Part shown: piece after piece, positions 2-57,437 of the stretch | Layout: every line of letters starts with the position of its first letter | Numbering within the stretch: position 1 is the first letter of the stretch | From: a virus | Taxonomy: Duplodnaviria > Caudoviricetes | DNA length: 64,000 bases | IMG/VR virus record: IMGVR_UViG_3300028025_000089 | Strand: one strand, 5' to 3' | Made by a program: the position numbers and the translations under genes | Notes under the pieces: model-generated | Seen by the model: only the letters and a program-made list of their open reading frames with translations | What the model was told of the DNA's origin: nothing | The model's database searches: none

Positions 2-637
2 ACAGCACAAATGCCCGTGGCATCTTCAGCCAAAATCACAGGTTCATTTGAAATGACAGAACCAGCTCACTCAGCGTTATTTAACCGACGAGTAGTTGGG
101 GGTGAAATTTTAATTGTGAATAAATACTTAATTAACGACTTTGAAAAAATTGGAATATGGTCAGAAGACTTGAAGAATGAAATCATCTTCAACGAAGGGT
201 CAATTCAAAATATCAATTTTAATAATTATTTAGATCCTGAAGATAAAAACTATAATAAGAAAGTTAAACGAATTGAGCATTTAATTCCTAAGTATAAAAC
301 GATTTGGGAAATCTCACAAAGAGAATTAATTGATATGGCATCCGAAAGAGCACCATTTATTGATCAATCACAGTCGATGAATATCTATATGGCAAATCCA
401 ACTTTATCAAAAATTACCTCATCACATTTTCACTCTTGGGAAAAAGGTTTGAAGACACTTTGTTATTATGTTAGAACTAAGGCAATATCGACAGGAGCAA
501 AACACTTGGCAATGGATATATCAAAAAAAGAAAAACCAAGAGTAACTCCTGAACCACCGAAAGTTGACTATTCTCACTTAAACTTACCACCAAAACCAAA
601 CAATTCTGATTTTGAATGTTTTGGGTGTTCTTCATAG
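2..637 (+). CDS. nrdA: Ribonucleoside-diphosphate reductase alpha subunit, C-terminal part (5' truncated by the window)
   Basis: Frame is open from base 2. Motifs AQMPVASSAKITG..EP, APFIDQSQSMN, GLKTLCYYVRT and a terminal CxxC (CFGCSS) are typical of class I RNR alpha. Confidence 0.95.
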   Translation, partial: TAQMPVASSAKITGSFEMTEPAHSALFNRRVVGGEILIVNKYLINDFEKIGIWSEDLKNEIIFNEGSIQNINFNNYLDPEDKNYNKKVKRIEHLIPKYKTIWEISQRELIDMASERAPFIDQSQSMNIYMANPTLSKITSSHFHSWEKGLKTLCYYVRTKAISTGAKHLAMDISKKEKPRVTPEPPKVDYSHLNLPPKPNNSDFECFGCSS

Positions 638-662
638 GACAAAAACAAATACCCAATGTGTT

Positions 663-688
663 ATCCCGAGCTAGGTCGGGATTTTTTA
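663..688 (+). terminator. Intrinsic terminator after nrdA
   Basis: ATCCCGA-6 nt-TCGGGAT stem followed by a T run. Confidence 0.8.
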
Positions 689-738
689 TTTATAGTATTT
701 TTTACTTAAAAAAAACCTAACTTATATTTATATGTGAT

Positions 739-1197
739 ATGGCAAATGGTATAACTTATGGTATTTCTTTTCCTTTTGTAGATTCTTTTACGGGAAGATA
801 TTTAGATGTGACCAATTCAACTGAAGGTGAAATAAGGTCAAGCTTAGTTCATTTAATTTTAACAAGAAAAGGATCAAGATATTTTCTACCTGATTTTGGA
901 ACAAGACTTTATGAATTTATTTTTGAACCATTAGACGGACCAACTTTTTCTGATATAGAGGCAGAGATCAAAAGTAGTGTTGGAACATACATGCCAAATT
1001 TACAAATCACTAACATATCTGTTGAACCAGGTTCTGCTGGTTTAGAAGACAAAGGTTATACGGTAAATAAAAATGGAGAAAGAGAGTTTCGTGTTACAAA
1101 CATCGGAACATTAGAACATACGGCAAAAATCAAAATAGATTATAGAATAACAGATTCGGCTTTTGAATCGAGTGATTTTATTATTATCAATATTTAA
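739..1197 (+). CDS. Baseplate wedge protein, gp25/GPW-like
   Basis: IRSSLVHLILTRKGSRYFLPDFGTRLYEFIFEP matches the gp25 family pattern; it is the first gene of the baseplate block. Confidence 0.9.
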   Translation: MANGITYGISFPFVDSFTGRYLDVTNSTEGEIRSSLVHLILTRKGSRYFLPDFGTRLYEFIFEPLDGPTFSDIEAEIKSSVGTYMPNLQITNISVEPGSAGLEDKGYTVNKNGEREFRVTNIGTLEHTAKIKIDYRITDSAFESSDFIIINI

Positions 1198-1203
1198 TAT
1201 TAT

Positions 1204-3045
1204 ATGGCAGAAAAAAAGATTTCATATACAGTAAGGGACTTTCAAGGAGTTAGAACCGAGTTAATTAATTTTACAAGAACTTATTATCCTGATTTAGTTC
1301 AAAACTTTAACGATGCCGGTATTTTCTCGGTAATGTTAGATATGAATGCTGCGGTAACAGATAATTTAAATTATCAAATTGATAGGAGTATTCAAGAAAC
1401 CGTATTACAATTTGCACAACAAAAAAATTCAGTATATAATATTGCTAGAACTTATGGTCTTAAAGTTCCGGGACAAAGACCATCGGTTGCGTTGATTGAC
1501 TTTTCAATCACGGTTCCTGCTTTTGGTGATAGAGAAGATTTAAGATATTGTGGTATTCTACGAAGAGGATCACAAGTTAATGGTGGTGGACAACCATTTG
1601 AAACCGTTTATGATATTGATTTCGCATCACCAATAAATGCCGAAGGATCTCCAAACAGAGTTAAAATACCTAACTTCGATTCAAGTGGTAAATTATTGAA
1701 TTATACAATCATTAAAAGAGAAGTTGTTGTTAATGGTATAACAAAAGTATATAAAAGAGTTATTACACCAAATGATTCTAAACCATATTTAGAATTATTT
1801 TTACCTGAAAAAAATGTTTTAGGAATTACAAGTGTATTATTAAAACCGGGAACACAATACTCCACAATACCTAATCCACAAGACTTTTTAATATTAGGTC
1901 AAGAAAGATGGTTTGAGGTTGACGCATTGGTTCAAGATAGAGTATTTGTTGAAGACCCAACTAAAACATCTGATCAACCTGGAATTAAGGTTGGAGCATA
2001 CATCACAACAACAAACAAGTTTATTTCTGAATATACACCTGAAGGTTTCTGTAAAATGACTTTTGGTGGTGGAAATATATCCGCTGATGAACAATTAAGA
2101 CAATTTGCGATTGATGGAAAAGGTTTTGATTTAAGTAGATATACTAACAATTACGCGATGGGAGCGGCTCTTCCACCAAATACAACATTATTCGTTCAGT
2201 ATAGAATTGGTGGTGGATTATCAAGTAATTTGGGTATTAACACAATTAACCAAGTTGGAACTGTGTCATTTGCCGTTAATGGACCATCTGATAGTGTAAA
2301 CCGAAGTGTAATCAATAGTTTACAATGTAATAACGTAACTGCGGCAATTGGAGGGGCAAACCCACCAACAACCGAAGATGTTAGAAACATGGTTTCATTT
2401 AACTTTGCCGCACAAAAAAGAGCGGTAACCGTAAATGACTATGATTCTATTATTAGAACAATGCCATCTCAGTTCGGAGCACCTGCTAAAGTTGCAATTA
2501 CAGAAGAAAATAATAAAATTAGAATTAAAATGTTGTCTTATGATACGACAGGAACATTAACAAATGTTGTGTCTAATACTTTAAAACAAAATGTTGCAAA
2601 TTATCTATCTAACTATAGAATGATAAATGATTACATATCAATTGAATCTGCAGATATCATTGACTTGGCGGTTACGGTAGATGTTGTATTAGATAATAGT
2701 CAAAATCAAGGAGCAATAATTTCTAAAACAATTCAAATAGTTGGAGACTTCTTTAATCCTTTAGTTAGACAATTAGGGCAAAATGTTAATATCTCTGAGC
2801 TTAGAAGATTAATACAAGCTGAAAATGGTATTGTTAGTATATCTGACATTTCATTCTTCAATCAAGTCGGAGGTCAATATTCATCAGCACAAACATCAAT
2901 GCCATATTCAGATCCTGCAACAAGACAAATCCAACCAACGGCAGATACTTTGTTCGCAACACCAACACAAATATACCAAGTAAGGTATCCAAACAAAGAT
3001 ATTAATATTAGAGTTTTGAACTTAAAATCAGTCAATTTCTCTTAG
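1204..3045 (+). CDS. Baseplate wedge subunit, T4 gp6 / baseplate J-like
   Basis: N-terminal DFQGVRTELINF..YYPD, RAVTVNDY motif in the C-terminal half, and position directly after the gp25-like gene. Confidence 0.85.
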   Translation: MAEKKISYTVRDFQGVRTELINFTRTYYPDLVQNFNDAGIFSVMLDMNAAVTDNLNYQIDRSIQETVLQFAQQKNSVYNIARTYGLKVPGQRPSVALIDFSITVPAFGDREDLRYCGILRRGSQVNGGGQPFETVYDIDFASPINAEGSPNRVKIPNFDSSGKLLNYTIIKREVVVNGITKVYKRVITPNDSKPYLELFLPEKNVLGITSVLLKPGTQYSTIPNPQDFLILGQERWFEVDALVQDRVFVEDPTKTSDQPGIKVGAYITTTNKFISEYTPEGFCKMTFGGGNISADEQLRQFAIDGKGFDLSRYTNNYAMGAALPPNTTLFVQYRIGGGLSSNLGINTINQVGTVSFAVNGPSDSVNRSVINSLQCNNVTAAIGGANPPTTEDVRNMVSFNFAAQKRAVTVNDYDSIIRTMPSQFGAPAKVAITEENNKIRIKMLSYDTTGTLTNVVSNTLKQNVANYLSNYRMINDYISIESADIIDLAVTVDVVLDNSQNQGAIISKTIQIVGDFFNPLVRQLGQNVNISELRRLIQAENGIVSISDISFFNQVGGQYSSAQTSMPYSDPATRQIQPTADTLFATPTQIYQVRYPNKDINIRVLNLKSVNFS

Positions 3046-3121
3046 AGATTTATTTTTTTCAAAATAGAATTATTTTTATCAAAATAGGAAATAAACTATT
3101 TATGAAAAAACTGATTTTTTA

Positions 3122-6100
3122 ATGCCAAAATCGTATAGAATAAGAACCGAAGTCGGTCAAGACAAATATATAAATGTAAATTTAGAACAAGATTGGGAAT
3201 CTTTAGAGATACTATCTTTAAAGATATTAGCCAACGATCTTTATACTAGATTTTGTGCTGACTACGGTGTTGTAGTCGGTCGAGTTTTTGTAAACAATGG
3301 ATTTGGTCTTCCAAATGCCAAAGTTTCCGTCTTCATACCATTGGAAGAGGCGGATGAATTAAACCCTGTAATTTCTGAACTATATCCGTATAAGAGTATA
3401 ACGGACACTAATGAGGAAGGGTATAGATATAACTTATTACCTAAATTACCATCTTATAACGGACATACATCGACAGGTTCATTTCCGAACAAGGCAGATG
3501 TTCTAATGGATAATTCTTATATTGAGGTATATGATAAGTATTATCGTTTCACTGTAACAACAAATGAAAGTGGTGACTTTATGATCTTTGGTGTTCCTGT
3601 TGGAACTCAAACAATCGTAATGGATGTTGACTTATCTGATATTGGTTGTTTTTCTTTGGCACCACAAGATTTAATACAACAAGGTTTAGCAACTGAAACT
3701 CAAGTTAATGGGGCAAGATTTAAATCATCTACAAACCTTAGAGAATTACCACAAATTAAAAATTTGGTATTTGATGTTGATGTTCGTCCTTTTTGGGGTG
3801 ACGCTGAGTTATGTCAAGTTGGTATTACAAGAGTTGATTTTGATTTAACTAAACAAGCAAATATCAATATACAACCAACCGCCATATTCATGGGATCAAT
3901 CATATCAACAACAGATGATGATGCGTTGAAAGTAAAATGTAAACCAAAAAATAACACAGGAAATCTTTGTGAATTAGTTGCAGGACCTGGTGAAATACAA
4001 GCAATTAGACAAACAATATATTCTGACGATAACGGACTTCCTATTTTAGAGAGATACCAAATAGAACAAGAAGGAAAGGTTATTGATGGAGATGGGACAT
4101 ACTTATTAAATGTCCCAATGAATTTGGATTATGTATTCACTAATGAATTTGGTCAACAAGTCATATCAAATGATCCGACAAAGGGTATACCCACAAAAGG
4201 AAAATACAGATTCAAGTTTAAATGGCAAAACGAACAAGGGCTTCAAGGGAGTTTTCTTAGAGCGGACTTTTTAGTTCCAAATGTTAAAGAATATGGGTGG
4301 GTTAATTCAAATACAGATCCTTTTGATCCTAATAACGCAGGAACATATAACTACACATTGGCTGCGGGACAGATTTCAGGATTTACGGCCGTTATTCCAC
4401 AGAATGTTGGTTTCGCGAGCCCACAAACAACAAACGTAGAATCATATCAAATATTAATTAACGGTCAAGTTTATTTAGGAAGTATTGAATCAATACAACT
4501 TAATGCGGGAGATCAGTTTCAGATTATCGCAACACCAGTTAATCCATCATCACCTCAATCAATTTCATTCACATCATACCCTCAAGATTTATTTGATGTG
4601 TATAAATCATATGCGTTTAGCACCGATTGGGATGATTATGCTAATACTCAAGATGCCATAGATTGTGAAGATACTTTTTATGAATTCAAATACAATAAAG
4701 TTTATACAACCGCAATGTTTTTGGATCGATATAAAAATGGAATCGGTAGGGCAAAACATTTGGGTATTAAAGAAATTGATAATAGAAGTTGTAAATCAAC
4801 AGTTAATACTTTTCCTGTAAACGATATTATTAGAAATTTCGATTTTATATTTTTTGTTTTTAATATTTTAATAAACATTTTAACTTTTCCGATATTAACT
4901 CTTTTATTTGTTGCACATTTAATCGCACTTCTATGGCCTGTTCTTAAATATCTTTTATTATTTTTAGGACCACTTATTGTATATTTTGGTGTTTCTGCTG
5001 GTATTGATTTAGGATATTATATATTAAGTTTAACTAACGTAACGGCAGTTGGTCCTGTAATATCACCAGCAACTGTTTTACAGATTATTGCTCAAGGAGC
5101 TAAAGTCTTATTTTTAACCGCGGCAGGATTGGCCTTCACATACTTTTATACAAAGTTTTTTATTAATAATACCGCAAATGGTAGAATAGATAACTTCCCA
5201 AGAATAGGTTTACCTATGATTGCATACCCTGACTGTACTAGTTGTGATTGTGAGTGTGGAAATGCAAGTTTAGATGATGATTTTGATGCTAATACGATAC
5301 AACAAGATATACAAGAGGCTCAGAATGGTTTGAGTGGTGGTGGCACAGGTAGTTATGATTTAGAAACAACGCAACCAAGTTCATTAATCGCACCATTAAA
5401 CACACCACAATCGTATAGTGTGTCACACCCCAACTTAGAATTAAATTCAAATGGAGATGAACCGTTTGATTGTGGATTTGGGTTTGGCGGTAAGTTTGAG
5501 TCATTTACAACATTAATTGGAAACGACGATGTTTCTAGTGACGTTGTTGTAAGGGCTGTTTTAGATTTCCAAAGAATGTTTTCAGGTTATGATGTATTAA
5601 GTTCAACAGACCCAAACAAATATATACAAAACGAAGCGTATTTGTTAAAAGCACCACAACCGTTTTTATTTTCCGCTAAGAAAAATGGGAACAATCCTGC
5701 CGATAGTAGATTTTTTGCATTCCCAACTTCAGTAACCTTGGCTCAAAAATTAAATGAGTTCAATACGAGAGATAAATATTTTTATAAAAATACATCTAAT
5801 ACTCCGAACACGGGTATTAATAAAATTAAAACTTGGGTTAACCCCACTATCAATAATTTATCAACGGCGTATTTAGATCAAGTTGTTGTTGTTTTAATGA
5901 ATCCAGGAACTACGGCAACATTGGGGGTTGGTAATTTAATTACTTTTCAAGATCCCACTTTTACAGGAACCTCATCAACTAATAGATTGGTAAACTTAAC
6001 AGGGGCAACAACAAACCAATTTAGTAATAATGCGATTACAGGAACAACAATAACAGGAACTACATCTGTTACTGTGACATATGCCAATCCATCCAACCCA

Positions 6101-8764
6101 AGTGGGGGAATACCAACAACCTTTGATATAATTTCACCGCAAGTAAGTCAAATTGCTGACCCAACAAACCCATCAGTCGAACAATCATATTTGCAATATG
6201 CAACCGACATAGAATATTTCCAACTTATAACTGGTATGACATATTCTGATTTTAACTCAATGGATGTTAATACGAGTGGTTATTTCCCTGAAACATTTTT
6301 ACGACACAACATAGATTATATTAGACCTAATTGTAATTTAAATGGGTTTATACAAGAAACTTATAGTGATGTGATAACATTCATGAGTGATTACCAAAAT
6401 TATGAAGTTTGTATTTTTGTTAGAGGTGTTGATCCGTTTACCGCTAAACAAACTATAAAATATGACTTATCACATATTTTTGGATATACAACACTAAACC
6501 AACAAGTAACAGTAGAAGGTGAATATTATTTGAATATCCCAATCCAACCTAATCAAATTAAACCACAGTCACATAACACCGTAAACAATAGTAATGCGAT
6601 TTTATATCACCCGTCTTATACATTTACGATTGACCCATCAAATTACACTGGATTTACATCTGAATTACCATATTATTACTTAAGCACCGATGATACATTG
6701 TCGTCACTATATACTCCCGTTCCATCTTTGTGGAGTAGTAATGCGAATAGCACTATAAGTTTAAACCAAACACTTATTAATGGGTCTAATATGCCGTTAT
6801 TACCACCATTTTCTTTCTATACTGTTGGTGGAACATATTTTAGATGGAATAGTGGAACAAACTATACCTTACCAACTAATATTCCACCAACACAGTTGTT
6901 TACTCAAGGAAATAGTTCAGGTTGTAATCAAGATTGTCAAAAACAACAATACTATAATCACCCATCTGCTGGAGGTAGTGGTAATGGACCTTATTTTACA
7001 TCTCAAGCGGCTTTAACGGCAACATACTCACCAGCGTACTATAGATATTCTTTATCTGGGGTTAACTTCTCGAACTCAAATAATATTGTAATGAGAAGTG
7101 ATAGACTACCAACATCAACAGGGACTCAAAATGGTGCCGGACCACAAACAGGTTTTGGTCTTCATCAAAACGATAACTTTACAATTTATGCTCCTGGCGG
7201 TAATAATGCCCCACCACAGATTTTTGCTGGAGGTGATTTGGCAAATGGTGAGTCTTTTGATTTAGATCCAAATACAGACGCATTAACAAGCACTTTAACT
7301 TGTGAGGGTATGGTTCCGTTGGCATGTTATTCTGGTTCAGGACAAAACGTTGGTGTATTACCATCAAGTTTATGTTCAGTTCCAGCAAACAGAATGATTA
7401 ATGGTTGTTATTGTTTACTTAACAAAAAATATGTTAAAGAGTATGGCGATGACGTTAGATTATTTTTAGAATGGAAAGTTCGTTTTACAATGAACTTTGC
7501 TGCGTGTAGAGGGGTATTTGCTCAAGTGTTTCAAAACAATTGGGTTAATGGTGTTTTATATATGTTTAATTTTAATAAACAAACCACTTTCAATATTCAG
7601 GCACAACCAAATTATGATTATTGTCAAGATGTAATTTTATATAATGACATATCAAATACTTTCTATTATAGATCTTCGCCATGGAATGAAAACACACAAC
7701 AATTCGTTGGTAAAAATTCACCTGCCGCTAATCCAAATTTACCTCAAAGTTTTTTAGATTTTCCTGGACTTGGATATAATCAAAAACAAATTCAGTTCCC
7801 AACAACCGTTGTGGATTTAGGACCAAGAGATTATTTTATTAATGAAATCTGTTGTTCGGGTATTGATGGTTTTGGTTCATATTATGCCGATCAATTAAAA
7901 TCTACATCATACCAAGATAATTCAGACATAATCCAATTAGGATTTTTATCTCGAATACTAAATGAAGGTGTAAGACAAAGAATTTTACCAATATCAAATG
8001 GTGGTAATAATAGTGAAGGAAAAGGGATCATTCAATTTTTTAATAGCACACGAGGTGGTTATAGAATTGATGGAGACTGGTCACAAATGTTATCAATCAA
8101 TTCAGAGTGGAAAGTTTCACCTTTCATAACTGAAAACATACCAGCACCTAACTACATCTATTTTGGTGATAACAATAATGGAACAAACCAATACTCAGGT
8201 AATGATATAAAACCAATAATGGGATTATTTTTCTCTTCAAATACTAATGAAGAAAGATATAGAAAAATAATGTCACCGGGAATTGAAACATATAGTTTTA
8301 ATCCTCTTATTGAAGAAAAATTTGGATATTCTAAATCTCAAGAAGTTCCAAATTATAGATGGACAATATCTTTACCACAAAATTCTGCTGGAACACCTAA
8401 CATATTTGGATCTGAGGATAATAATTGGTATACAGATACTTTAATTTTAACAGGACAAACAGGGTTTGGATTTACAAAAAAAAGATATCAAGACTTAGAT
8501 TTTACATCACCACAAGAAAAATACATAACACCAACAACTAAATTTGGTTTTATATCAAACTTTTTAAATAACAACCCTAACCCAAGTTCTGCGGGGGTTA
8601 TTCAAGGACAACCTGTTCCTGTTTCATCACAAGGAATCCCAACTAATCAAGATGCGCTTCAATCGGTTGTTGTTGGGGCTCCATACCACTTCTACTTTGG
8701 TTTAAATAATGGAAAAACGGCAATCAATCGTTTTTATAAACTTTACGTAGCAACAGGAGAATAA
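3122..8764 (+). CDS. Very large virion (baseplate/tail-tip) protein, 1880 aa, with a central hydrophobic segment
   Basis: Long ORF in the structural block with a late motif upstream; beta-rich N-terminus (TVTTNESGDFMIFGVPVGTQTI); ~110 aa hydrophobic stretch. Confidence 0.7.
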   Translation: MPKSYRIRTEVGQDKYINVNLEQDWESLEILSLKILANDLYTRFCADYGVVVGRVFVNNGFGLPNAKVSVFIPLEEADELNPVISELYPYKSITDTNEEGYRYNLLPKLPSYNGHTSTGSFPNKADVLMDNSYIEVYDKYYRFTVTTNESGDFMIFGVPVGTQTIVMDVDLSDIGCFSLAPQDLIQQGLATETQVNGARFKSSTNLRELPQIKNLVFDVDVRPFWGDAELCQVGITRVDFDLTKQANINIQPTAIFMGSIISTTDDDALKVKCKPKNNTGNLCELVAGPGEIQAIRQTIYSDDNGLPILERYQIEQEGKVIDGDGTYLLNVPMNLDYVFTNEFGQQVISNDPTKGIPTKGKYRFKFKWQNEQGLQGSFLRADFLVPNVKEYGWVNSNTDPFDPNNAGTYNYTLAAGQISGFTAVIPQNVGFASPQTTNVESYQILINGQVYLGSIESIQLNAGDQFQIIATPVNPSSPQSISFTSYPQDLFDVYKSYAFSTDWDDYANTQDAIDCEDTFYEFKYNKVYTTAMFLDRYKNGIGRAKHLGIKEIDNRSCKSTVNTFPVNDIIRNFDFIFFVFNILINILTFPILTLLFVAHLIALLWPVLKYLLLFLGPLIVYFGVSAGIDLGYYILSLTNVTAVGPVISPATVLQIIAQGAKVLFLTAAGLAFTYFYTKFFINNTANGRIDNFPRIGLPMIAYPDCTSCDCECGNASLDDDFDANTIQQDIQEAQNGLSGGGTGSYDLETTQPSSLIAPLNTPQSYSVSHPNLELNSNGDEPFDCGFGFGGKFESFTTLIGNDDVSSDVVVRAVLDFQRMFSGYDVLSSTDPNKYIQNEAYLLKAPQPFLFSAKKNGNNPADSRFFAFPTSVTLAQKLNEFNTRDKYFYKNTSNTPNTGINKIKTWVNPTINNLSTAYLDQVVVVLMNPGTTATLGVGNLITFQDPTFTGTSSTNRLVNLTGATTNQFSNNAITGTTITGTTSVTVTYANPSNPSGGIPTTFDIISPQVSQIADPTNPSVEQSYLQYATDIEYFQLITGMTYSDFNSMDVNTSGYFPETFLRHNIDYIRPNCNLNGFIQETYSDVITFMSDYQNYEVCIFVRGVDPFTAKQTIKYDLSHIFGYTTLNQQVTVEGEYYLNIPIQPNQIKPQSHNTVNNSNAILYHPSYTFTIDPSNYTGFTSELPYYYLSTDDTLSSLYTPVPSLWSSNANSTISLNQTLINGSNMPLLPPFSFYTVGGTYFRWNSGTNYTLPTNIPPTQLFTQGNSSGCNQDCQKQQYYNHPSAGGSGNGPYFTSQAALTATYSPAYYRYSLSGVNFSNSNNIVMRSDRLPTSTGTQNGAGPQTGFGLHQNDNFTIYAPGGNNAPPQIFAGGDLANGESFDLDPNTDALTSTLTCEGMVPLACYSGSGQNVGVLPSSLCSVPANRMINGCYCLLNKKYVKEYGDDVRLFLEWKVRFTMNFAACRGVFAQVFQNNWVNGVLYMFNFNKQTTFNIQAQPNYDYCQDVILYNDISNTFYYRSSPWNENTQQFVGKNSPAANPNLPQSFLDFPGLGYNQKQIQFPTTVVDLGPRDYFINEICCSGIDGFGSYYADQLKSTSYQDNSDIIQLGFLSRILNEGVRQRILPISNGGNNSEGKGIIQFFNSTRGGYRIDGDWSQMLSINSEWKVSPFITENIPAPNYIYFGDNNNGTNQYSGNDIKPIMGLFFSSNTNEERYRKIMSPGIETYSFNPLIEEKFGYSKSQEVPNYRWTISLPQNSAGTPNIFGSEDNNWYTDTLILTGQTGFGFTKKRYQDLDFTSPQEKYITPTTKFGFISNFLNNNPNPSSAGVIQGQPVPVSSQGIPTNQDALQSVVVGAPYHFYFGLNNGKTAINRFYKLYVATGE

Positions 8765-32350: not shown

Positions 32351-34723
32351 ATGGATTTATTTAATCCGCCAAAATTATTCAATTATAATATTATGATAAA
32401 AGATTTGGACTTTTCAAAATTTGAAAATCCCATCATACAAGTTGTTTGGGAAGATTTACCAGAAAACTTTACACAAGATAAAATCAAAAGTGTAAAGCAT
32501 TATTTTTCCAAAAAGTATAATACAACAAACGTTAATGTTTTAACAAAGGCAAAGAACGTTGAAAGTGAAACTATGCAAAGTATTGATGTGTCGGTGAATA
32601 TTACTGACACACAATACCAACTTGATCTTATTACCAATTACCTTAAATCAAAAGGACATGAAGACAAAACTGATGATGTGTTAAACATCAACAGAATGGT
32701 TGAAAATAAAATGTCTGGTGATGAAGAAACTTCGGCACAATTCAAGAAATGGTATATCAGAAATATTGAGTTTTCAAACTTTTTATCATACGGTGAAAAT
32801 CAAAAATTAAATTTTGATGCGTTGAATGGTATCGTGGTGGTTGAATCTGATCCTCCTAATTTTGGTGGTAAAACTGTATTAACGGTGGATCTTTTAATGT
32901 TTTTGTTTTTTAACGAAACAACAAAAACAACAAAGGCCGAAGAAATATTTAACCGATTTTCAAACAAAGACAAAGTTCATGTTAAAGGTGAAATCACAAT
33001 TGATGGTGAAGATTATGTTATTGTTAGAAACATCGAAAGAAAGATGTCCAAAAAAGGTGAATGGAATGTCAAAACCGAATTGGACTTCTTTAAAAAGTTG
33101 TCAGATGGTTCTTTATTAAATTTCACAGGAGAACAAAGAAGGGAAACAGAAGCCTTCATTAAAAACTCAATTGGAACAAAGGAGGACTTTTTAATGACGA
33201 TCCTTACAACAGGATCAAACCTTGAAGATTTATTAGAATCAAAACCAACGGCAAGAGGTCAGGTGTTGTCAAGATTTATGGGTCTTGAGTTTTTGAAAAG
33301 AAAAGAAGAAGTTGCAAAAGAAATCTATTCAGAGTTTTCAAAACAAAAAATGTCAAATTTATATTCTTCAGAACAATTAAAAAATGATATTGAAACACAC
33401 CAAACCTCAATCATAGAATTAAAGAACACAATCGCCGAAAGCAAAAAAAGTTTATCTGAAGTTGATGAGGCAATTGTAAAAGGAAAAACATATCGTGATG
33501 ATATGTTAAAAAGAAAACATACCAACATTGATCAAGAATTAAGTTTATTAAATCCTGATAAAACCAAAGATGAAATAAAAGAAATTGAACGTGAGAAGTC
33601 AGGTTATTTAACAAAAATATCTGAAATCAAAGTCGTTGAACCATCTGAGTTTTACCATGAGGATAAACATGATGAGGTTAAAGAACAATATAACAACGTT
33701 TATAAAGAAGTTATTCAAATTGACACTGAAATCGCATCAATCAACAAACTAAAATCTTCCGTTGAAGGTGGAATCAAATGTGAGCACTGTGGAATTGAGT
33801 TAATGAACGCAGCAATCACAAATTCGAAAATCGCAGAATTAGATGGACTTATCGTGCAAAAAAACACAAAAACAACACTTATGACGGATTTATCCAACAA
33901 AGAACAAAGTTTTGTGAAACTTAAAAAAGAGTTTGATGAATATGAAAAAAATAAGTTGGTTAAAGAGAAATATGAAATTTCGATTGAAAGTTGTGATTTA
34001 AAGATCGGTTCATTAAACGATAAGATTAAACGTTGGGAAGAAATACAAGATAAGATTTCTGAAAACCAAAAGATTGATTCGTTGTTGATTAAAGCTGACG
34101 TTAGATTAGATGAATTGGAACTTCAAAGAAGAACGATCAGTAATTCAATTTTAACAAACGAGGGATCGATTAAATCACTTGATGAAAAGATTGATAACAA
34201 CAAAAAAATGATTGTTAAAATTAAAGAGGAAGAAGAGAAAGAAAAAATCTTTAAGATCTATTTGGAACTTTATGGTAAAAATGGAATTTCAAAAATGATT
34301 ATGAAAACTATGATGCCTTTAATCAATACAGAACTTCAAAGACTTATGGAAGATTCATGTTATTTCAAAATGGAAATAAGAATTAACGACAAAAATGAAG
34401 TTGAGTTTATGATGATTGATAATGGAACTGGGGTTGAAAAACTAATGACATCGGGAAGTGGATATGAGAAGACTTTATCGTCATTAGCGTTAAGAGCGGT
34501 ATTAACAAAAATATGTAGTTTACCAACTCCCAACCTGGTCGTATTAGACGAAGTCTTTGGTAAAATATCTCCTGAGAACTTAGATATGGTTTATGAATTC
34601 TTTGTAAAGATTAAAGATTATTTTGAAAAAGTGTTTGTTATATCGCATAATAGCGCAGTGTCATCATGGGGTGACCATGTGGTGAAAATTAAAAAAGAAA
34701 ATAATTTGTCAAAAGTTTTGTAG
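32351..34723 (+). CDS. SbcC/Rad50/T4 gp46-like ATPase with an N-terminal extension
   Basis: NFLSYG, Walker A GGKT, zinc hook CEHC, signature SGYEK, Walker B VVLDEVFG, ISH; ~130 extra N-terminal residues. Confidence 0.92.
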   Translation: MDLFNPPKLFNYNIMIKDLDFSKFENPIIQVVWEDLPENFTQDKIKSVKHYFSKKYNTTNVNVLTKAKNVESETMQSIDVSVNITDTQYQLDLITNYLKSKGHEDKTDDVLNINRMVENKMSGDEETSAQFKKWYIRNIEFSNFLSYGENQKLNFDALNGIVVVESDPPNFGGKTVLTVDLLMFLFFNETTKTTKAEEIFNRFSNKDKVHVKGEITIDGEDYVIVRNIERKMSKKGEWNVKTELDFFKKLSDGSLLNFTGEQRRETEAFIKNSIGTKEDFLMTILTTGSNLEDLLESKPTARGQVLSRFMGLEFLKRKEEVAKEIYSEFSKQKMSNLYSSEQLKNDIETHQTSIIELKNTIAESKKSLSEVDEAIVKGKTYRDDMLKRKHTNIDQELSLLNPDKTKDEIKEIEREKSGYLTKISEIKVVEPSEFYHEDKHDEVKEQYNNVYKEVIQIDTEIASINKLKSSVEGGIKCEHCGIELMNAAITNSKIAELDGLIVQKNTKTTLMTDLSNKEQSFVKLKKEFDEYEKNKLVKEKYEISIESCDLKIGSLNDKIKRWEEIQDKISENQKIDSLLIKADVRLDELELQRRTISNSILTNEGSIKSLDEKIDNNKKMIVKIKEEEEKEKIFKIYLELYGKNGISKMIMKTMMPLINTELQRLMEDSCYFKMEIRINDKNEVEFMMIDNGTGVEKLMTSGSGYEKTLSSLALRAVLTKICSLPTPNLVVLDEVFGKISPENLDMVYEFFVKIKDYFEKVFVISHNSAVSSWGDHVVKIKKENNLSKVL

Positions 34724-34747
34724 ATTGAAATATTATTGTTAGATTTG
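34717..34747 (+). promoter_or_regulatory. Bacteroidota-type housekeeping promoter (TTTG-N19-TAGATTTG)
   Basis: Matches the -33 TTTG / -7 TAnnTTTG consensus with canonical spacing. Confidence 0.7.
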
Positions 34748-37679: not shown

Positions 37680-37710
37680 TTTGGCGGTTTAAAAAAAACA
37701 ATTATCTTTG
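37680..37710 (+). promoter_or_regulatory. Bacteroidota-type promoter (TTTG-N19-TATCTTTG) with no downstream ORF
   Basis: Canonical spacing; points into a 250-nt non-coding structured region. Confidence 0.75.
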
Positions 37711-52158: not shown

Positions 52159-52398
52159 ATGGGACCAATTGAAAAAAAAATATTAGAATTATCTAAAACT
52201 GAAGGACTTTCAGAAGAAACAAAGTTGGCATTAACTATAATTAAAAATCAGATCAAAGAAGACGAGAAACGAATTGTTAATGAAGCTTATCACAAAGGGT
52301 TTTATGATAAAGAAATGAATAGAAAACCCTCTTGGAACTACTTTGATAGTAAATACAAATGTTATTTTTCAAATACCACATTTGGCCAAATCAAATAA
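52159..52398 (+). CDS. Hypothetical protein
   Basis: ORF fills the gap. Confidence 0.6.
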   Translation: MGPIEKKILELSKTEGLSEETKLALTIIKNQIKEDEKRIVNEAYHKGFYDKEMNRKPSWNYFDSKYKCYFSNTTFGQIK

Positions 52399-52412
52399 TT
52401 TTCATATCTTTG
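52381..52412 (+). promoter_or_regulatory. Bacteroidota-type promoter (TTTG-N20-TATCTTTG); probably leaderless
   Basis: ATG 52417 is 4 nt after the -7 box. Confidence 0.7.
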
Positions 52413-54753: not shown

Positions 54754-54774
54754 TTGTCAGAATACGATTAATTG

Positions 54775-54805
54775 AACCACAGTCAGAAAACTGTGGTTTT
54801 TTTTT
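54775..54805 (+). terminator. Intrinsic terminator
   Basis: AACCACAGT-6 nt-ACTGTGGTT followed by a long T run. Confidence 0.85.
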
Positions 54806-54814
54806 ATAAAAATG

Positions 54815-54845
54815 TTTGGTATTTATTAAAAGTTATTTATCTTTG
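54815..54845 (+). promoter_or_regulatory. Bacteroidota-type promoter (TTTG-N19-TATCTTTG)
   Basis: Canonical spacing, directly after a terminator. Confidence 0.75.
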
Positions 54846-54868
54846 TAATGTGATAAACAAGAAACAAA

Positions 54869-54985
54869 ATGAAAACAGTTGAACTTACTATGAAAGAAAT
54901 ATGGGCGGCAACTAGACCGGTCGTTCAAAAAAGTAAGAAAACGTATTCACGAAAACAAAAACACAAAAACAAGGAAAATAATTAA
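54869..54985 (+). CDS. 38-aa basic peptide, ArfA-like motif, missing from the ORF track
   Basis: MKTVELTMKEIWAATRPVVQKSKKTYSRKQKHKNKENN; first ORF after a promoter, with an A-rich leader. Confidence 0.7.
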   Translation: MKTVELTMKEIWAATRPVVQKSKKTYSRKQKHKNKENN

Positions 54986-54987
54986 AT

Positions 54988-55749
54988 ATGATATACACAC
55001 CAGAATTAATCAAATCAATTGCCCCGGCAGTATTCGCAACATCACCATCTTCAAAAATGACAAACAAGTATGAGTTTGTTCCAACACACGAGGTTATGGA
55101 AATGTTCGATCGTGAAGGTTGGCAACTTTCATCTGTAAAACAAACAGGTAGAGGAATTCATAACGTTCATGAATTAAAATATCGTAACGGACAACTACCC
55201 AAAGTTGGTGATACGGTTGTTGAAGCAATTATCCGTAACTCTCATGATGGATCGGCAACATTCTCTATGGCGGCTGGATTATTCAGGCTTTGTTGTTCTA
55301 ACGGACTCACAGTTCCAACATCAGTTGCAGAACGTTTTTCACTTCGTCATAACCACTTCTCTTTAGATGAGGTTAAAGGATTAGCAGAAGACTTCTCTAA
55401 AAAACTTCCAAAGATAGAGGCTTCGGTTTCTCGAATGATGGAAAAAGAAATGACCGAGAAAGAAAAACTTCGTCTAATCAAAAGGGCGGTTGAGATTCGA
55501 TGGGCTTTGGGTAGTGCTCCTTCAGCACTTGACATCAACGACCTTCTAACACCATTTCGACCTGAAGATGAAGGAAGTGATCTTTGGACCGTATTTAACG
55601 TGATCCAAGAGAAAATGATGAAGGGTGGATTCTCTTATCAAACACCACGAGGTCGAACAACTAAACTACGAGGAATTAAAAGTATTCAAGCATCCCACCG
55701 ATTAAACACTAAACTTTGGGAAGCGGCTGAAGAATTAGTTTTGGTATAA
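54988..55749 (+). CDS. DUF932/DUF945-family protein
   Basis: IIRNSHDGS, FRLCCSNGL and SDLWTVFNVIQE motifs. Confidence 0.85.
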   Translation: MIYTPELIKSIAPAVFATSPSSKMTNKYEFVPTHEVMEMFDREGWQLSSVKQTGRGIHNVHELKYRNGQLPKVGDTVVEAIIRNSHDGSATFSMAAGLFRLCCSNGLTVPTSVAERFSLRHNHFSLDEVKGLAEDFSKKLPKIEASVSRMMEKEMTEKEKLRLIKRAVEIRWALGSAPSALDINDLLTPFRPEDEGSDLWTVFNVIQEKMMKGGFSYQTPRGRTTKLRGIKSIQASHRLNTKLWEAAEELVLV

Positions 55750-55755
55750 CAAATA

Positions 55756-55782
55756 AAAACGGGGGTCAGTGACCCCCATTTT
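55756..55782 (+). terminator. Probable intrinsic terminator
   Basis: GGGGGTC-AGT-GACCCCC with A and T flanks. Confidence 0.7.
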
Positions 55783-56164: not shown

Positions 56165-56821
56165 ATGTCTGAAAAAGGTTATATATACGTAATTAAAAAT
56201 TTGGTTAACAATAAAGAATATGTTGGGTGCACAATTCACCCAATCAAAAAAAGATTTGAAGAACATATTTGGAGGTGTATTAATACCGATTCAAATACAA
56301 AATTTTGTAACTCAATTAGAAAATATGGTGTTGAAAATTTTATTATTGAAATGATCGAAGAGTGTGATGTTAAAATAATATATCAGAGAGAAAAATTTTA
56401 CATAAACGAAAGAAAGACATTTGAAAAAGGATTAAACACAACAATTGGGGGTGAGGGTTGTTTGGGTTATAAACACTCAAAACAAATTAGAGAAAAAATT
56501 TCCTCAATAATTAAAGATGGTAGATCACATAGAGGTAAAACTTATGAACAAATATATGGTGATAGGGCCAATGAAGAAAAATTAAAAAGGAAAAAATCTA
56601 ATGTTTGGAATAATATATCTGAAGAAGATAAAAAAATACGAGTCGATAATCTTAAATCTGCAGTTCGAAAAAAATCGAAATATGGGGTTGAATTAGTTAA
56701 AGAGATTAAACAAAAAATAAAAGAAGGTGTTAAGATCAAAGAACTAAAAAAAATGTATCCCCAAGTTTATGATAATTTTTTTTATGACATAAAAAATGGT
56801 AGAAGATGGTCGGACATATAA
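56165..56821 (+). mobile_element. Free-standing GIY-YIG homing endonuclease gene
   Basis: GYIYVIKNLVNNKEYVG, conserved R and E, GLN..IGGEG, NUMOD3-like HSKQIREKIS; neither neighbour is interrupted. Confidence 0.85.
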
Positions 56822-56842: not shown

Positions 56843-57157
56843 ATGGAAATTAGTAGTGTAGAATTACAAAAAAAAATAAATGCCGGTGAAAAATTAATGA
56901 TTGAATTTCATGGTGTTTGGTGCGGACCCTGTAAATTAATGAAACCAATTTTTGAAAAAATTGCAAAAGAAAATACATCTGATGTTCAAATGTATACTAT
57001 GGATATTGATGAAAATAGAGAGGTTGCAATTAGTCTTGGGATTAGAAGTATCCCAACAATTAAAATGTTCAATTCAGGAGAAGTCGTTGAAACAAAAGTT
57101 GGACTTTTAAATGAAGGACAGATAAATAATCTTTTAACGGAATTGATCAATGGATAA
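56843..57157 (+). CDS. trxA: Thioredoxin
   Basis: WCGPC and IRSIPT. Confidence 0.92.
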   Translation: MEISSVELQKKINAGEKLMIEFHGVWCGPCKLMKPIFEKIAKENTSDVQMYTMDIDENREVAISLGIRSIPTIKMFNSGEVVETKVGLLNEGQINNLLTELING

Positions 57158-57437
57158 GATAGCAGTTATTTTTACTATGAAATCATGTCCTTTTTGTAGT
57201 ATGTTAAAAGAGATGTTAGATAAAGAAGACATAGGTTATATTGATCGAGACATTGAAGAATTTGAAGAAGAATATGATATGTTTGTTGAAGCAACAGGTA
57301 ATGATTTTGTTCCTGCGTTTATGTTAATCGAAAATTATGATAGCGAAACCCCAACAACAAGTTTATTTGCTCCTGATCGTGATTTTGAAGATATTGATCA
57401 CGGACTTAAAATAATCAAAGAGTTTTACGAAAGATAA
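57150..57437 (+). CDS. Glutaredoxin/NrdH-like redoxin
   Basis: CPFC and FVPAF cis-Pro loop. Confidence 0.85.
   Translation: MDKIAVIFTMKSCPFCSMLKEMLDKEDIGYIDRDIEEFEEEYDMFVEATGNDFVPAFMLIENYDSETPTTSLFAPDRDFEDIDHGLKIIKEFYER

Follow-up and report, generated by a model that had tools for sequence, protein, structure and literature searches.

The window analysed here, a 64,000-nt stretch of viral DNA (IMG/VR record IMGVR_UViG_3300028025_000089), comes from a large myovirus that encodes a baseplate wedge protein and an SbcC-like protein. On its plus strand lies an ATG-started, TAA-ended ORF for a 38-aa peptide (Table 1), and the sequence RPVVQKSKKTYSRKQKHK that the initial annotation had read within it is present letter for letter. 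The feature in that annotation began at position 54815, which is the first letter of the −33 TTTG of a TTTG-N19-TATCTTTG element, a motif that we take to be the Bacteroidota sigma-A promoter consensus. Between the −7 box and the ATG of the ORF lie 23 nt, so the leader would be about 15–17 nt long and the mRNA not leaderless; for this gene, the earlier remark on leaderless mRNAs is not supported. Of 63 unique regions upstream of members of the peptide's family, 23 contain the strict promoter motif, and in the window's clade it is kept at a fixed 23-nt distance from the gene. Promoter matches in the whole window number 14, vs. 6.4 expected. Three more matches, to TTTG-N17-22-TAnnTTTG, lie just 5′ of plus-strand ORFs, and two of them share the −7 box TATCTTTG with the promoter of the peptide.

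A hairpin followed by a T-run, spanning 54774–54799 and resembling an intrinsic terminator, appears to close the upstream transcription unit. Downstream of the peptide gene, a DUF932 gene is followed by another terminator-like hairpin. The upstream terminator and promoter, the DUF932 gene 2 nt on and the closing terminator together define a bicistronic unit with the peptide gene first, in line with the original description of the peptide as the first gene of an operon. Flavobacterium phage immuto is the closest GenBank relative for genes of the peptide/DUF932 region. A megablast search of this region against the phage collection gave no match, and the nearest virus record (G001) contains neither a copy of the peptide gene nor an ArfA. 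Further along, a GIY-YIG homing endonuclease gene separates a 111-aa gene from the thioredoxin gene. Only one of about 28 related contigs (L025) has a homologue of it, and in most of the others thioredoxin lies about 700 nt earlier. The endonuclease gene looks like a mobile insertion. The thioredoxin and glutaredoxin-like genes, which stand side by side, are kept downstream in the window's clade.

Table 1. Positions of the peptide gene, its parts and its surroundings in the window.
Feature	Position	Strand	Details
Further promoter match	34717-34747		TTTG-N17-22-TAnnTTTG
Further promoter match	37680-37710		TTTG-N17-22-TAnnTTTG
Further promoter match	52381-52412		TTTG-N17-22-TAnnTTTG
Intrinsic-terminator-like hairpin and T-run	54774-54805	+	10-pair stem GAACCACAGTCAGAAAACTGTGGTTT, then TTTTTTTAT
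Bacteroidota-type promoter, TTTG-N19-TATCTTTG	54815-54845	+	−33 TTTG 54815-54818; −7 TATCTTTG 54838-54845
ORF for 38-aa peptide	54869-54985	+	stop codon counted in coordinates; translation MKTVELTMKEIWAATRPVVQKSKKTYSRKQKHKNKENN
Predicted helix, codons 8-15 (MKEIWAAT)	54890-54913	+	AlphaFold2; aligns to J2-1 ArfA helix region
Basic tail, codons 16-37 (RPVVQKSKKTYSRKQKHKNKEN)	54914-54979	+	aligned to ArfA R26-R48
KH motif, K31-H32	54959-54964	+	aligned to ArfA K44-H45
DUF932 gene	54988-55749	+	PF06067, E 1.9e-29; starts 2 nt past peptide stop
Terminator-like hairpin closing two-gene unit	55756-55782	.	scored on both strands
GIY-YIG homing endonuclease gene	56165-56821		PF01541; PHROG 314
Thioredoxin and glutaredoxin-like genes	56843-57437		PF00085; PF00462

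The 38-aa ORF is a real gene under purifying selection. An exhaustive phmmer search returned 68 representative clusters at E ≤ 1e-3, each of about 35–80 aa with one chance exception, while a profile search gave a family of 959 protein clusters. In IMG/VR, a family copy is carried by at least 86 contigs. The median dN/dS is 0.15 (168 pairs), and pN/pS between the window peptide and its nearest relatives is 0.10–0.26. Forty-seven members yield the consensus MKxIExTMQEIWxATRPxVxKNKKxYxRKxKHK, in which Y26 is invariant and K24, R28, K29, and K31 are conserved at ≥ 90%. The N-terminal 15 residues are conserved as strongly as the tail (consensus MKTIEVTMQEIWxATRP), and the full alignment of the 47 members is too diverse for pattern scans. 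Just 38 codons in A+T-rich DNA could be a chance open frame and no gene; this reading, to which we give a negligible probability, is already refuted by the hundreds of homologues, the mostly synonymous change, and the promoter at a fixed distance. The immuto homologue is annotated as a hypothetical protein, and many family clusters of 49 aa consist of proteins ending in GPSFLSKAFL. An NCBIfam search with the window peptide gave no match. A tblastn match in Pantoea phage AAS21 (E 9) was rejected as chance, as it runs antisense to an annotated gene.

DUF932 lies directly downstream of the peptide gene in about 28 contigs of the window's clade, as well as in L031 and L036 (DUF932 56% identical), and the 2-nt spacing or an overlap is kept in all of these. 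Such spacing would suit a leader ORF, whose translation tunes DUF932 and whose peptide is itself functionless. We regard this as very improbable, given that the amino acids are under strong purifying selection and that some members are nowhere near a DUF932 gene, standing alone with a terminator of their own, in tRNA arrays, or on a bacterial chromosome. In more distant phages the peptide gene and DUF932 are 1–3 kb apart, and many family members have no DUF932 nearby. Shared early-region synteny may explain the link between the peptide and DUF932 as well as a functional tie would.

All 80 of the IMG/VR family loci fetched are on viral contigs, which reach 290 kb. A scan of 185,579 species genomes for the pattern KKYTRKxKH gave 13 confirmed loci, all in MAGs and mostly from Bacteroidota; a preceding scan for the window-clade pattern had confirmed no locus, and no family copy turned up when another 400 genomes of the same phylum were searched by HMM. 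A truly chromosomal copy, rare in the family, is located at 4001–4132 of a 413-kb contig of a Bacteroidia MAG (L108), 77 nt 3′ of recA and adjoining a ParE toxin gene/toxin–antitoxin pair and ABC transporter genes. Viral loci in IMG/VR together with few MAG copies indicate that the family is overwhelmingly phage-borne and no core host gene.

ArfA (YhdL; PF03889) is an RF2-dependent alternative rescue factor of Gamma- and Betaproteobacteria, in which a helix, F25, and the strand Q27–E30 recruit and activate RF2. The E. coli ArfA sequence had been given correctly in the initial annotation, and BLASTP against it gave 9/18 identities (E 6e-5 for this single comparison). The basic tail of the window peptide aligns to ArfA with one 3-residue gap, at G35-K36-G37 (GKG). 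K, K, Y, R, K, K, and H are identical between the two tails and the order K-K...Y-x-R-K-x-K-H is intact, which agrees with the early observation that the R..V.K.KK and Y.RK.KH anchors are kept and GKG is missing. In ArfA and BrfA alike, the KH motif is reported to dock in a pocket of the mRNA entry channel (PMC8012679). Two clusters of the family are named ArfA by the JGI pipeline, one of them (P0261) close to the window peptide, and the nearest named clusters in the ESM Atlas, which serve as a lead only, include a DUF7230 cluster and an ArfA cluster.

In hhalign comparisons, a set of 16 bacterial and 6 phage ArfAs, gathered from plasmid-collection and phage matches, gave a probability of 83% (P 8.6e-6, score 29.7). 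The values were 55% with bacterial ArfA alone (P 1.2e-4, score 24.9), or 40% in a second tool setup (E 3e-4, score 24.8), 56% with all ArfAs combined (P 1.1e-4, score 25.5), and 17% with 37 viral mini-ArfAs alone (P 1.5e-3, score 20.1). Two composition-preserving nulls of 200 runs each, shuffling either all columns or the tail columns alone, had mean scores of 8.6 and 9.7 (s.d. about 2, maximum 16.5), and 0/200 of either reached 24.9. Since no shuffle reaches the observed score, Lys-richness is not the cause of the match, which disposes of the concern, voiced at the outset, that composition alone might explain it. The similarity of the tail to ArfA exceeds chance and composition.

The aligned stretch spans just 22–25 residues, so convergence on a ribosome-binding motif is possible. 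Pfam ArfA (PF03889, gathering 25.5 bits) gave no match to the window peptide at E ≤ 0.1 and matched 0/47 family members at E ≤ 1; the positive controls passed (phages J2-1, RXM, CRP-212, XM05, pf16, and Arash, and E. coli). A phmmer search against PDB chains gave no match at E ≤ 10. The KGKGS motif is missing from the window peptide; according to the ArfT paper, none of these tail residues is essential for ArfA activity (PMC6299226). P17–Q20 of the window peptide align with the ArfA β-strand Q27–E30. L24 and F25, the latter an RF2-specific hydrophobic contact, have no counterpart in the window peptide, and A18 has no clear one. The hhalign alignment stops short of the N-terminal region (in ArfA, helix 15–24 with A18).

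The sole Pfam match of the window peptide is DUF7230 (PF23876), with 19.9 bits, below the 27-bit gathering cut-off (E 8.3e-4, residues 16–37). Of the 47 family members, 38 match DUF7230 (best E 4.2e-6), and a few relatives (P0007, P0068) have a precomputed PF23876 assignment. A literature search found DUF7230 unmentioned in the searched library of papers. Two rumen Bacteroidales MAGs carry 54-aa variants (L112:3899-4063 and L113:3938-4102) with a KKKYTRKxKH tail and a different, longer N-terminus (…DNILLALKAARKQ…) that partly recalls the DNALKAL helix of ArfA; DUF7230 matches the L112 variant weakly and the L113 variant not at all.

The ArfA of Pseudoalteromonas phage J2-1 (ATN93434; C-terminus …RVERDKTKYRRKKKHKNREEG / …LFRTRVERDKTKYRRKKKHKNREEG) also lacks GKG. 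Its scores exceed the cut-offs of two Pfam models, ArfA (41.3 vs. 25.5 bits) and DUF7230 (28.6 vs. 27 bits), and precomputed annotation agrees. BLASTP between J2-1 ArfA and the window peptide gave 41% identity over 37 residues (window 2–36, E 2e-6), with window residues 2–15 on the J2-1 helix region and a 2-residue gap at L-F. By these scores and alignments, J2-1 ArfA is a bridge between ArfA and the window peptide's family. It is the single bridging sequence found, and a search with it returned itself alone.

Canonical ArfA is carried by phages in at least 44 IMG/VR contigs (L119–L162) and six GenBank phages. Many of the ArfAs in L119–L162 are 35–40 aa long, start at the helix, and have a direct stop soon past the KH region. 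Because canonical ArfAs of this length with a direct stop are common in phages, a pre-truncated phage ArfA is an existing pattern. The one mention of a phage ArfA in the literature examined is an annotation remark on Citromicrobium phage RXM (PMC8953757). Salmonella phage Arash gp99c (L085:1417-1641) is labelled 'ribosomal protein L2', yet scores 67.8 bits with Pfam ArfA, and its gene adjoins three tRNA genes.

In bacteria, arfA contains an in-frame terminator or RNase III site that produces a stop-less mRNA and places the gene under repression by tmRNA (PMC8012679). A sister subfamily of the window peptide, the immuto-like members, has the core LQERWAAS[KR]H...KSKK.YTRK.KHK. At 10/10 immuto-like loci, a GC-rich hairpin of 6–8 bp starts 6–8 nt past the KH codon and is followed by a T-run, with 14–26 more codons between the T-run and the stop. 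These hairpins comprise four unrelated sequences at the same place, and no stop occurs in frame before the hairpin. As a positive control, the same script found in-frame hairpins in arfA of Pasteurella, Vibrio, Neisseria, Pseudomonas, and Proteus. Judged by position and form, the immuto-like terminators match the published arfA design, and a tmRNA-type repression design appears to be kept in the sister subfamily by way of the in-frame terminator. In the window itself, the gene lacks such a hairpin and stops directly at TAA; in phage mini-ArfAs, too, the in-frame hairpin is mostly missing. The annotated 49-aa 'hypothetical protein' immuto26A_124 (L001:6001-6150) reads through the terminator hairpin AAGGGCTCCAGTCAGGGCCCTT + CCTTTTT, and translation of the terminated transcript would probably leave out its last ~12 residues.

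These results also bear on whether the product is instead a small basic protein that has nothing to do with stalled ribosomes, for example one that binds DNA, RNA, or tRNA or that acts together with DUF932, and whose ArfA-like motif arose by convergence. A similarity this short, the unmatched Pfam ArfA model, and the probability down to 17% with one ArfA set are what such a protein could show, and the tight DUF932 coupling in about 30 contigs (within 1–3 kb in more distant phages) and the chromosomal copy beside recA and the ParE toxin–antitoxin pair would fit it as well. We nevertheless consider this rather unlikely: the shuffles exclude composition, the order K-K...Y-x-R-K-x-K-H is exact with KH included, J2-1 ArfA lies above both Pfam cut-offs, and many members are without DUF932. 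In-frame terminators would, moreover, have no obvious reason in a DNA-binding protein.

Some family members sit among genes of the translation apparatus. In a 290-kb contig (L061; L062 is alike), a 22-tRNA array at 138–6330 holds a family member (4001–4117) between tRNA-Leu and tRNA-Met, and in L054 a member lies directly 3′ of a tRNA-like sequence in a 5-tRNA array. In a 165-kb IMG/VR contig (L028), the family member at 3986–4114 is preceded, at a distance of 1.7 kb, by a gene for a phage SmpB (1849–2283, 144 aa, Pfam SmpB E 4.3e-52); ARAGORN detected no tmRNA in 8 kb of this contig. Neighbourhoods with tRNAs or SmpB account for only 3–4 of about 40 distinct loci.

AlphaFold2 run on the 38-mer gave a helix at residues 8–15 and an extended remainder (mean pLDDT 78.5). 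In this model, the short helix and extended tail correspond to the layout reported for ribosome-bound ArfA (PMC8012679).

The best-supported interpretation of the sequence comparisons is that the window gene encodes a divergent, phage-borne peptide of the ArfA type in an always-on form. We assign a probability of about 0.6 to the ORF being a pre-truncated, minimal ArfA-type ribosome-rescue factor without tmRNA control, from a large myovirus of Flavobacterium-type Bacteroidota; the phage would then probably bring its own ribosome-rescue tool. In the proposed mechanism, the target would be a ribosome that has reached the 3′ end of a broken mRNA without a stop codon and has stalled there. The basic tail R16–N37 (Y26, R28, K29, K31, H32) would enter the empty mRNA entry channel, and P17–Q20 together with helix 8–15 would offer a docking surface to a host class-I release factor; once recruited, this factor would hydrolyse the peptidyl-tRNA and free the ribosome. 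What we infer here is that the peptide binds ribosomes, recruits a release factor, and benefits the phage. The ordinary stop codon and host-type promoter, in a gene that stands first in an early unit, suggest that the peptide is made constitutively, without the tmRNA-dependent repression of bacterial arfA. The initial proposal of an ArfA-like rescue function is thus partly supported, by selection, the shuffle-proof tail, the J2-1 bridge, the terminators of the sister subfamily, and the tRNA/SmpB context; the failure of Pfam ArfA, hhalign probabilities of 17–83% over 22–25 residues, and the missing equivalent of F25 count against it.

The same tail could also act as a ribosome plug or competitor that sits in the empty mRNA channel and recruits no release factor, so that tmRNA–SmpB or ArfB is blocked on stalled ribosomes, or ribosomes are parked, to the phage's gain. 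The conserved tail and KH, combined with an RF2-activating N-terminal part of ArfA that is not detectably kept and with the missing F25 equivalent, lend themselves to this idea, and the published ArfA(A18T) mutant demonstrates that such a peptide can bind without activating (PMC8012679). It seems to us quite unlikely, however. The N-terminal 15 residues are conserved like the tail, which suggests a specific partner; the subfamily with in-frame terminators copies the logic of a back-up rescue factor; and a phage with its own SmpB nearby (L028) is unlikely to carry a tmRNA blocker too.

Within the preferred reading of a release-factor-dependent rescue peptide, the missing F25, GKG, and clear A18, and the distinct N-terminus, mean that the release-factor contacts, if any, must differ from those of E. 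coli ArfA. A tentative possibility is that the family forms a distinct phage-borne class of minimal release-factor-recruiting peptides, adapted to Bacteroidota, that exists in always-on and tmRNA-gated forms and by which phages would free their ribosomes whenever host RNases or RNA-targeting defences cleave phage messages. Such peptides may work with RF1 and RF2 or with another partner, possibly DUF932; recruitment of RF1 as well as RF2, or of the other partner, may follow from the missing F25 contact and GKG. The tmRNA-gated form would be that of the immuto-like phages, and the always-on form that of the window's copy.

If the family is active, phages of Bacteroidota and of other phyla would widely carry release-factor-dependent rescue peptides, and Pfam DUF7230 would gain a function. 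Phage ribosome-rescue tools would then stand beside phage tRNAs and SmpB, with a bearing on how phages cope with mRNA- and tRNA-cleaving defences. The occurrence of always-on and terminator-gated forms in one family offers a natural experiment on why tmRNA gates arfA, and the length of 38 residues makes a synthetic peptide feasible for direct tests.

Among known systems, ArfA resembles the window peptide in the size of its active form (52–55 aa vs. 38), in having a short helix, predicted for the window peptide, and an extended basic tail, and in the tail motif R-x-x-V-x-K-x-K-K...[ST]-Y-x-R-K-x-K-H, KH included. It shares with the immuto-like sister subfamily a terminator in frame, from which a stop-less mRNA would result, whereas the window copy has a normal stop codon and would thus be without tmRNA control. 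Further differences are the failed Pfam model, the absence of counterparts to GKG (G35–G37) and L24-F25, and the N-terminal 15 residues, which are another conserved sequence (MKTIEVTMQEIW). The hosts differ as well: the window family belongs to phages of Bacteroidota and ArfA to Gamma- and Betaproteobacteria, and a survey of 1,956 FCB-group genomes recorded arfA in none and arfB in 1,426 (PMC11633108). The DUF7230 profile (PF23876; PHROGs 6310, 2701, and 1359; ~42 positions) has its basic motif at positions 16–37, corresponding to window residues 16–37, and leaves the N-terminal 15 residues of the window peptide without a match.

BrfA of Bacillus subtilis is likewise a small basic peptide with its C-terminal tail in the mRNA channel and has the KH motif in common with the window peptide; it follows the stop-less-mRNA design and is likened to the window peptide by the KH motif and by description only. 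ArfT of Francisella tularensis, like BrfA a release-factor-dependent rescue peptide that is basic and places its C-terminal tail in the mRNA channel, resembles the window peptide in being small (40 aa) and in ending at an ordinary stop codon; no match in sequence was seen. The KKGGSTNKK / KGG-type motif of ArfT (the KGG motif and ArfT family are described in PMC6299226 and PMC6514570) is missing from the window peptide, for which no KGG-type Pfam match was found at E ≤ 0.1. The phage mini-ArfAs (J2-1, Citromicrobium RXM gp10, Roseobacter CRP-212, and Pseudomonas pf16) pass Pfam ArfA and keep the helix/strand region N-P-[IV]-A-K...F-R-Q-R-V, neither of which holds for the window's family, but like the window peptide they are short, at 35–51 aa, and have a direct stop soon past KH.
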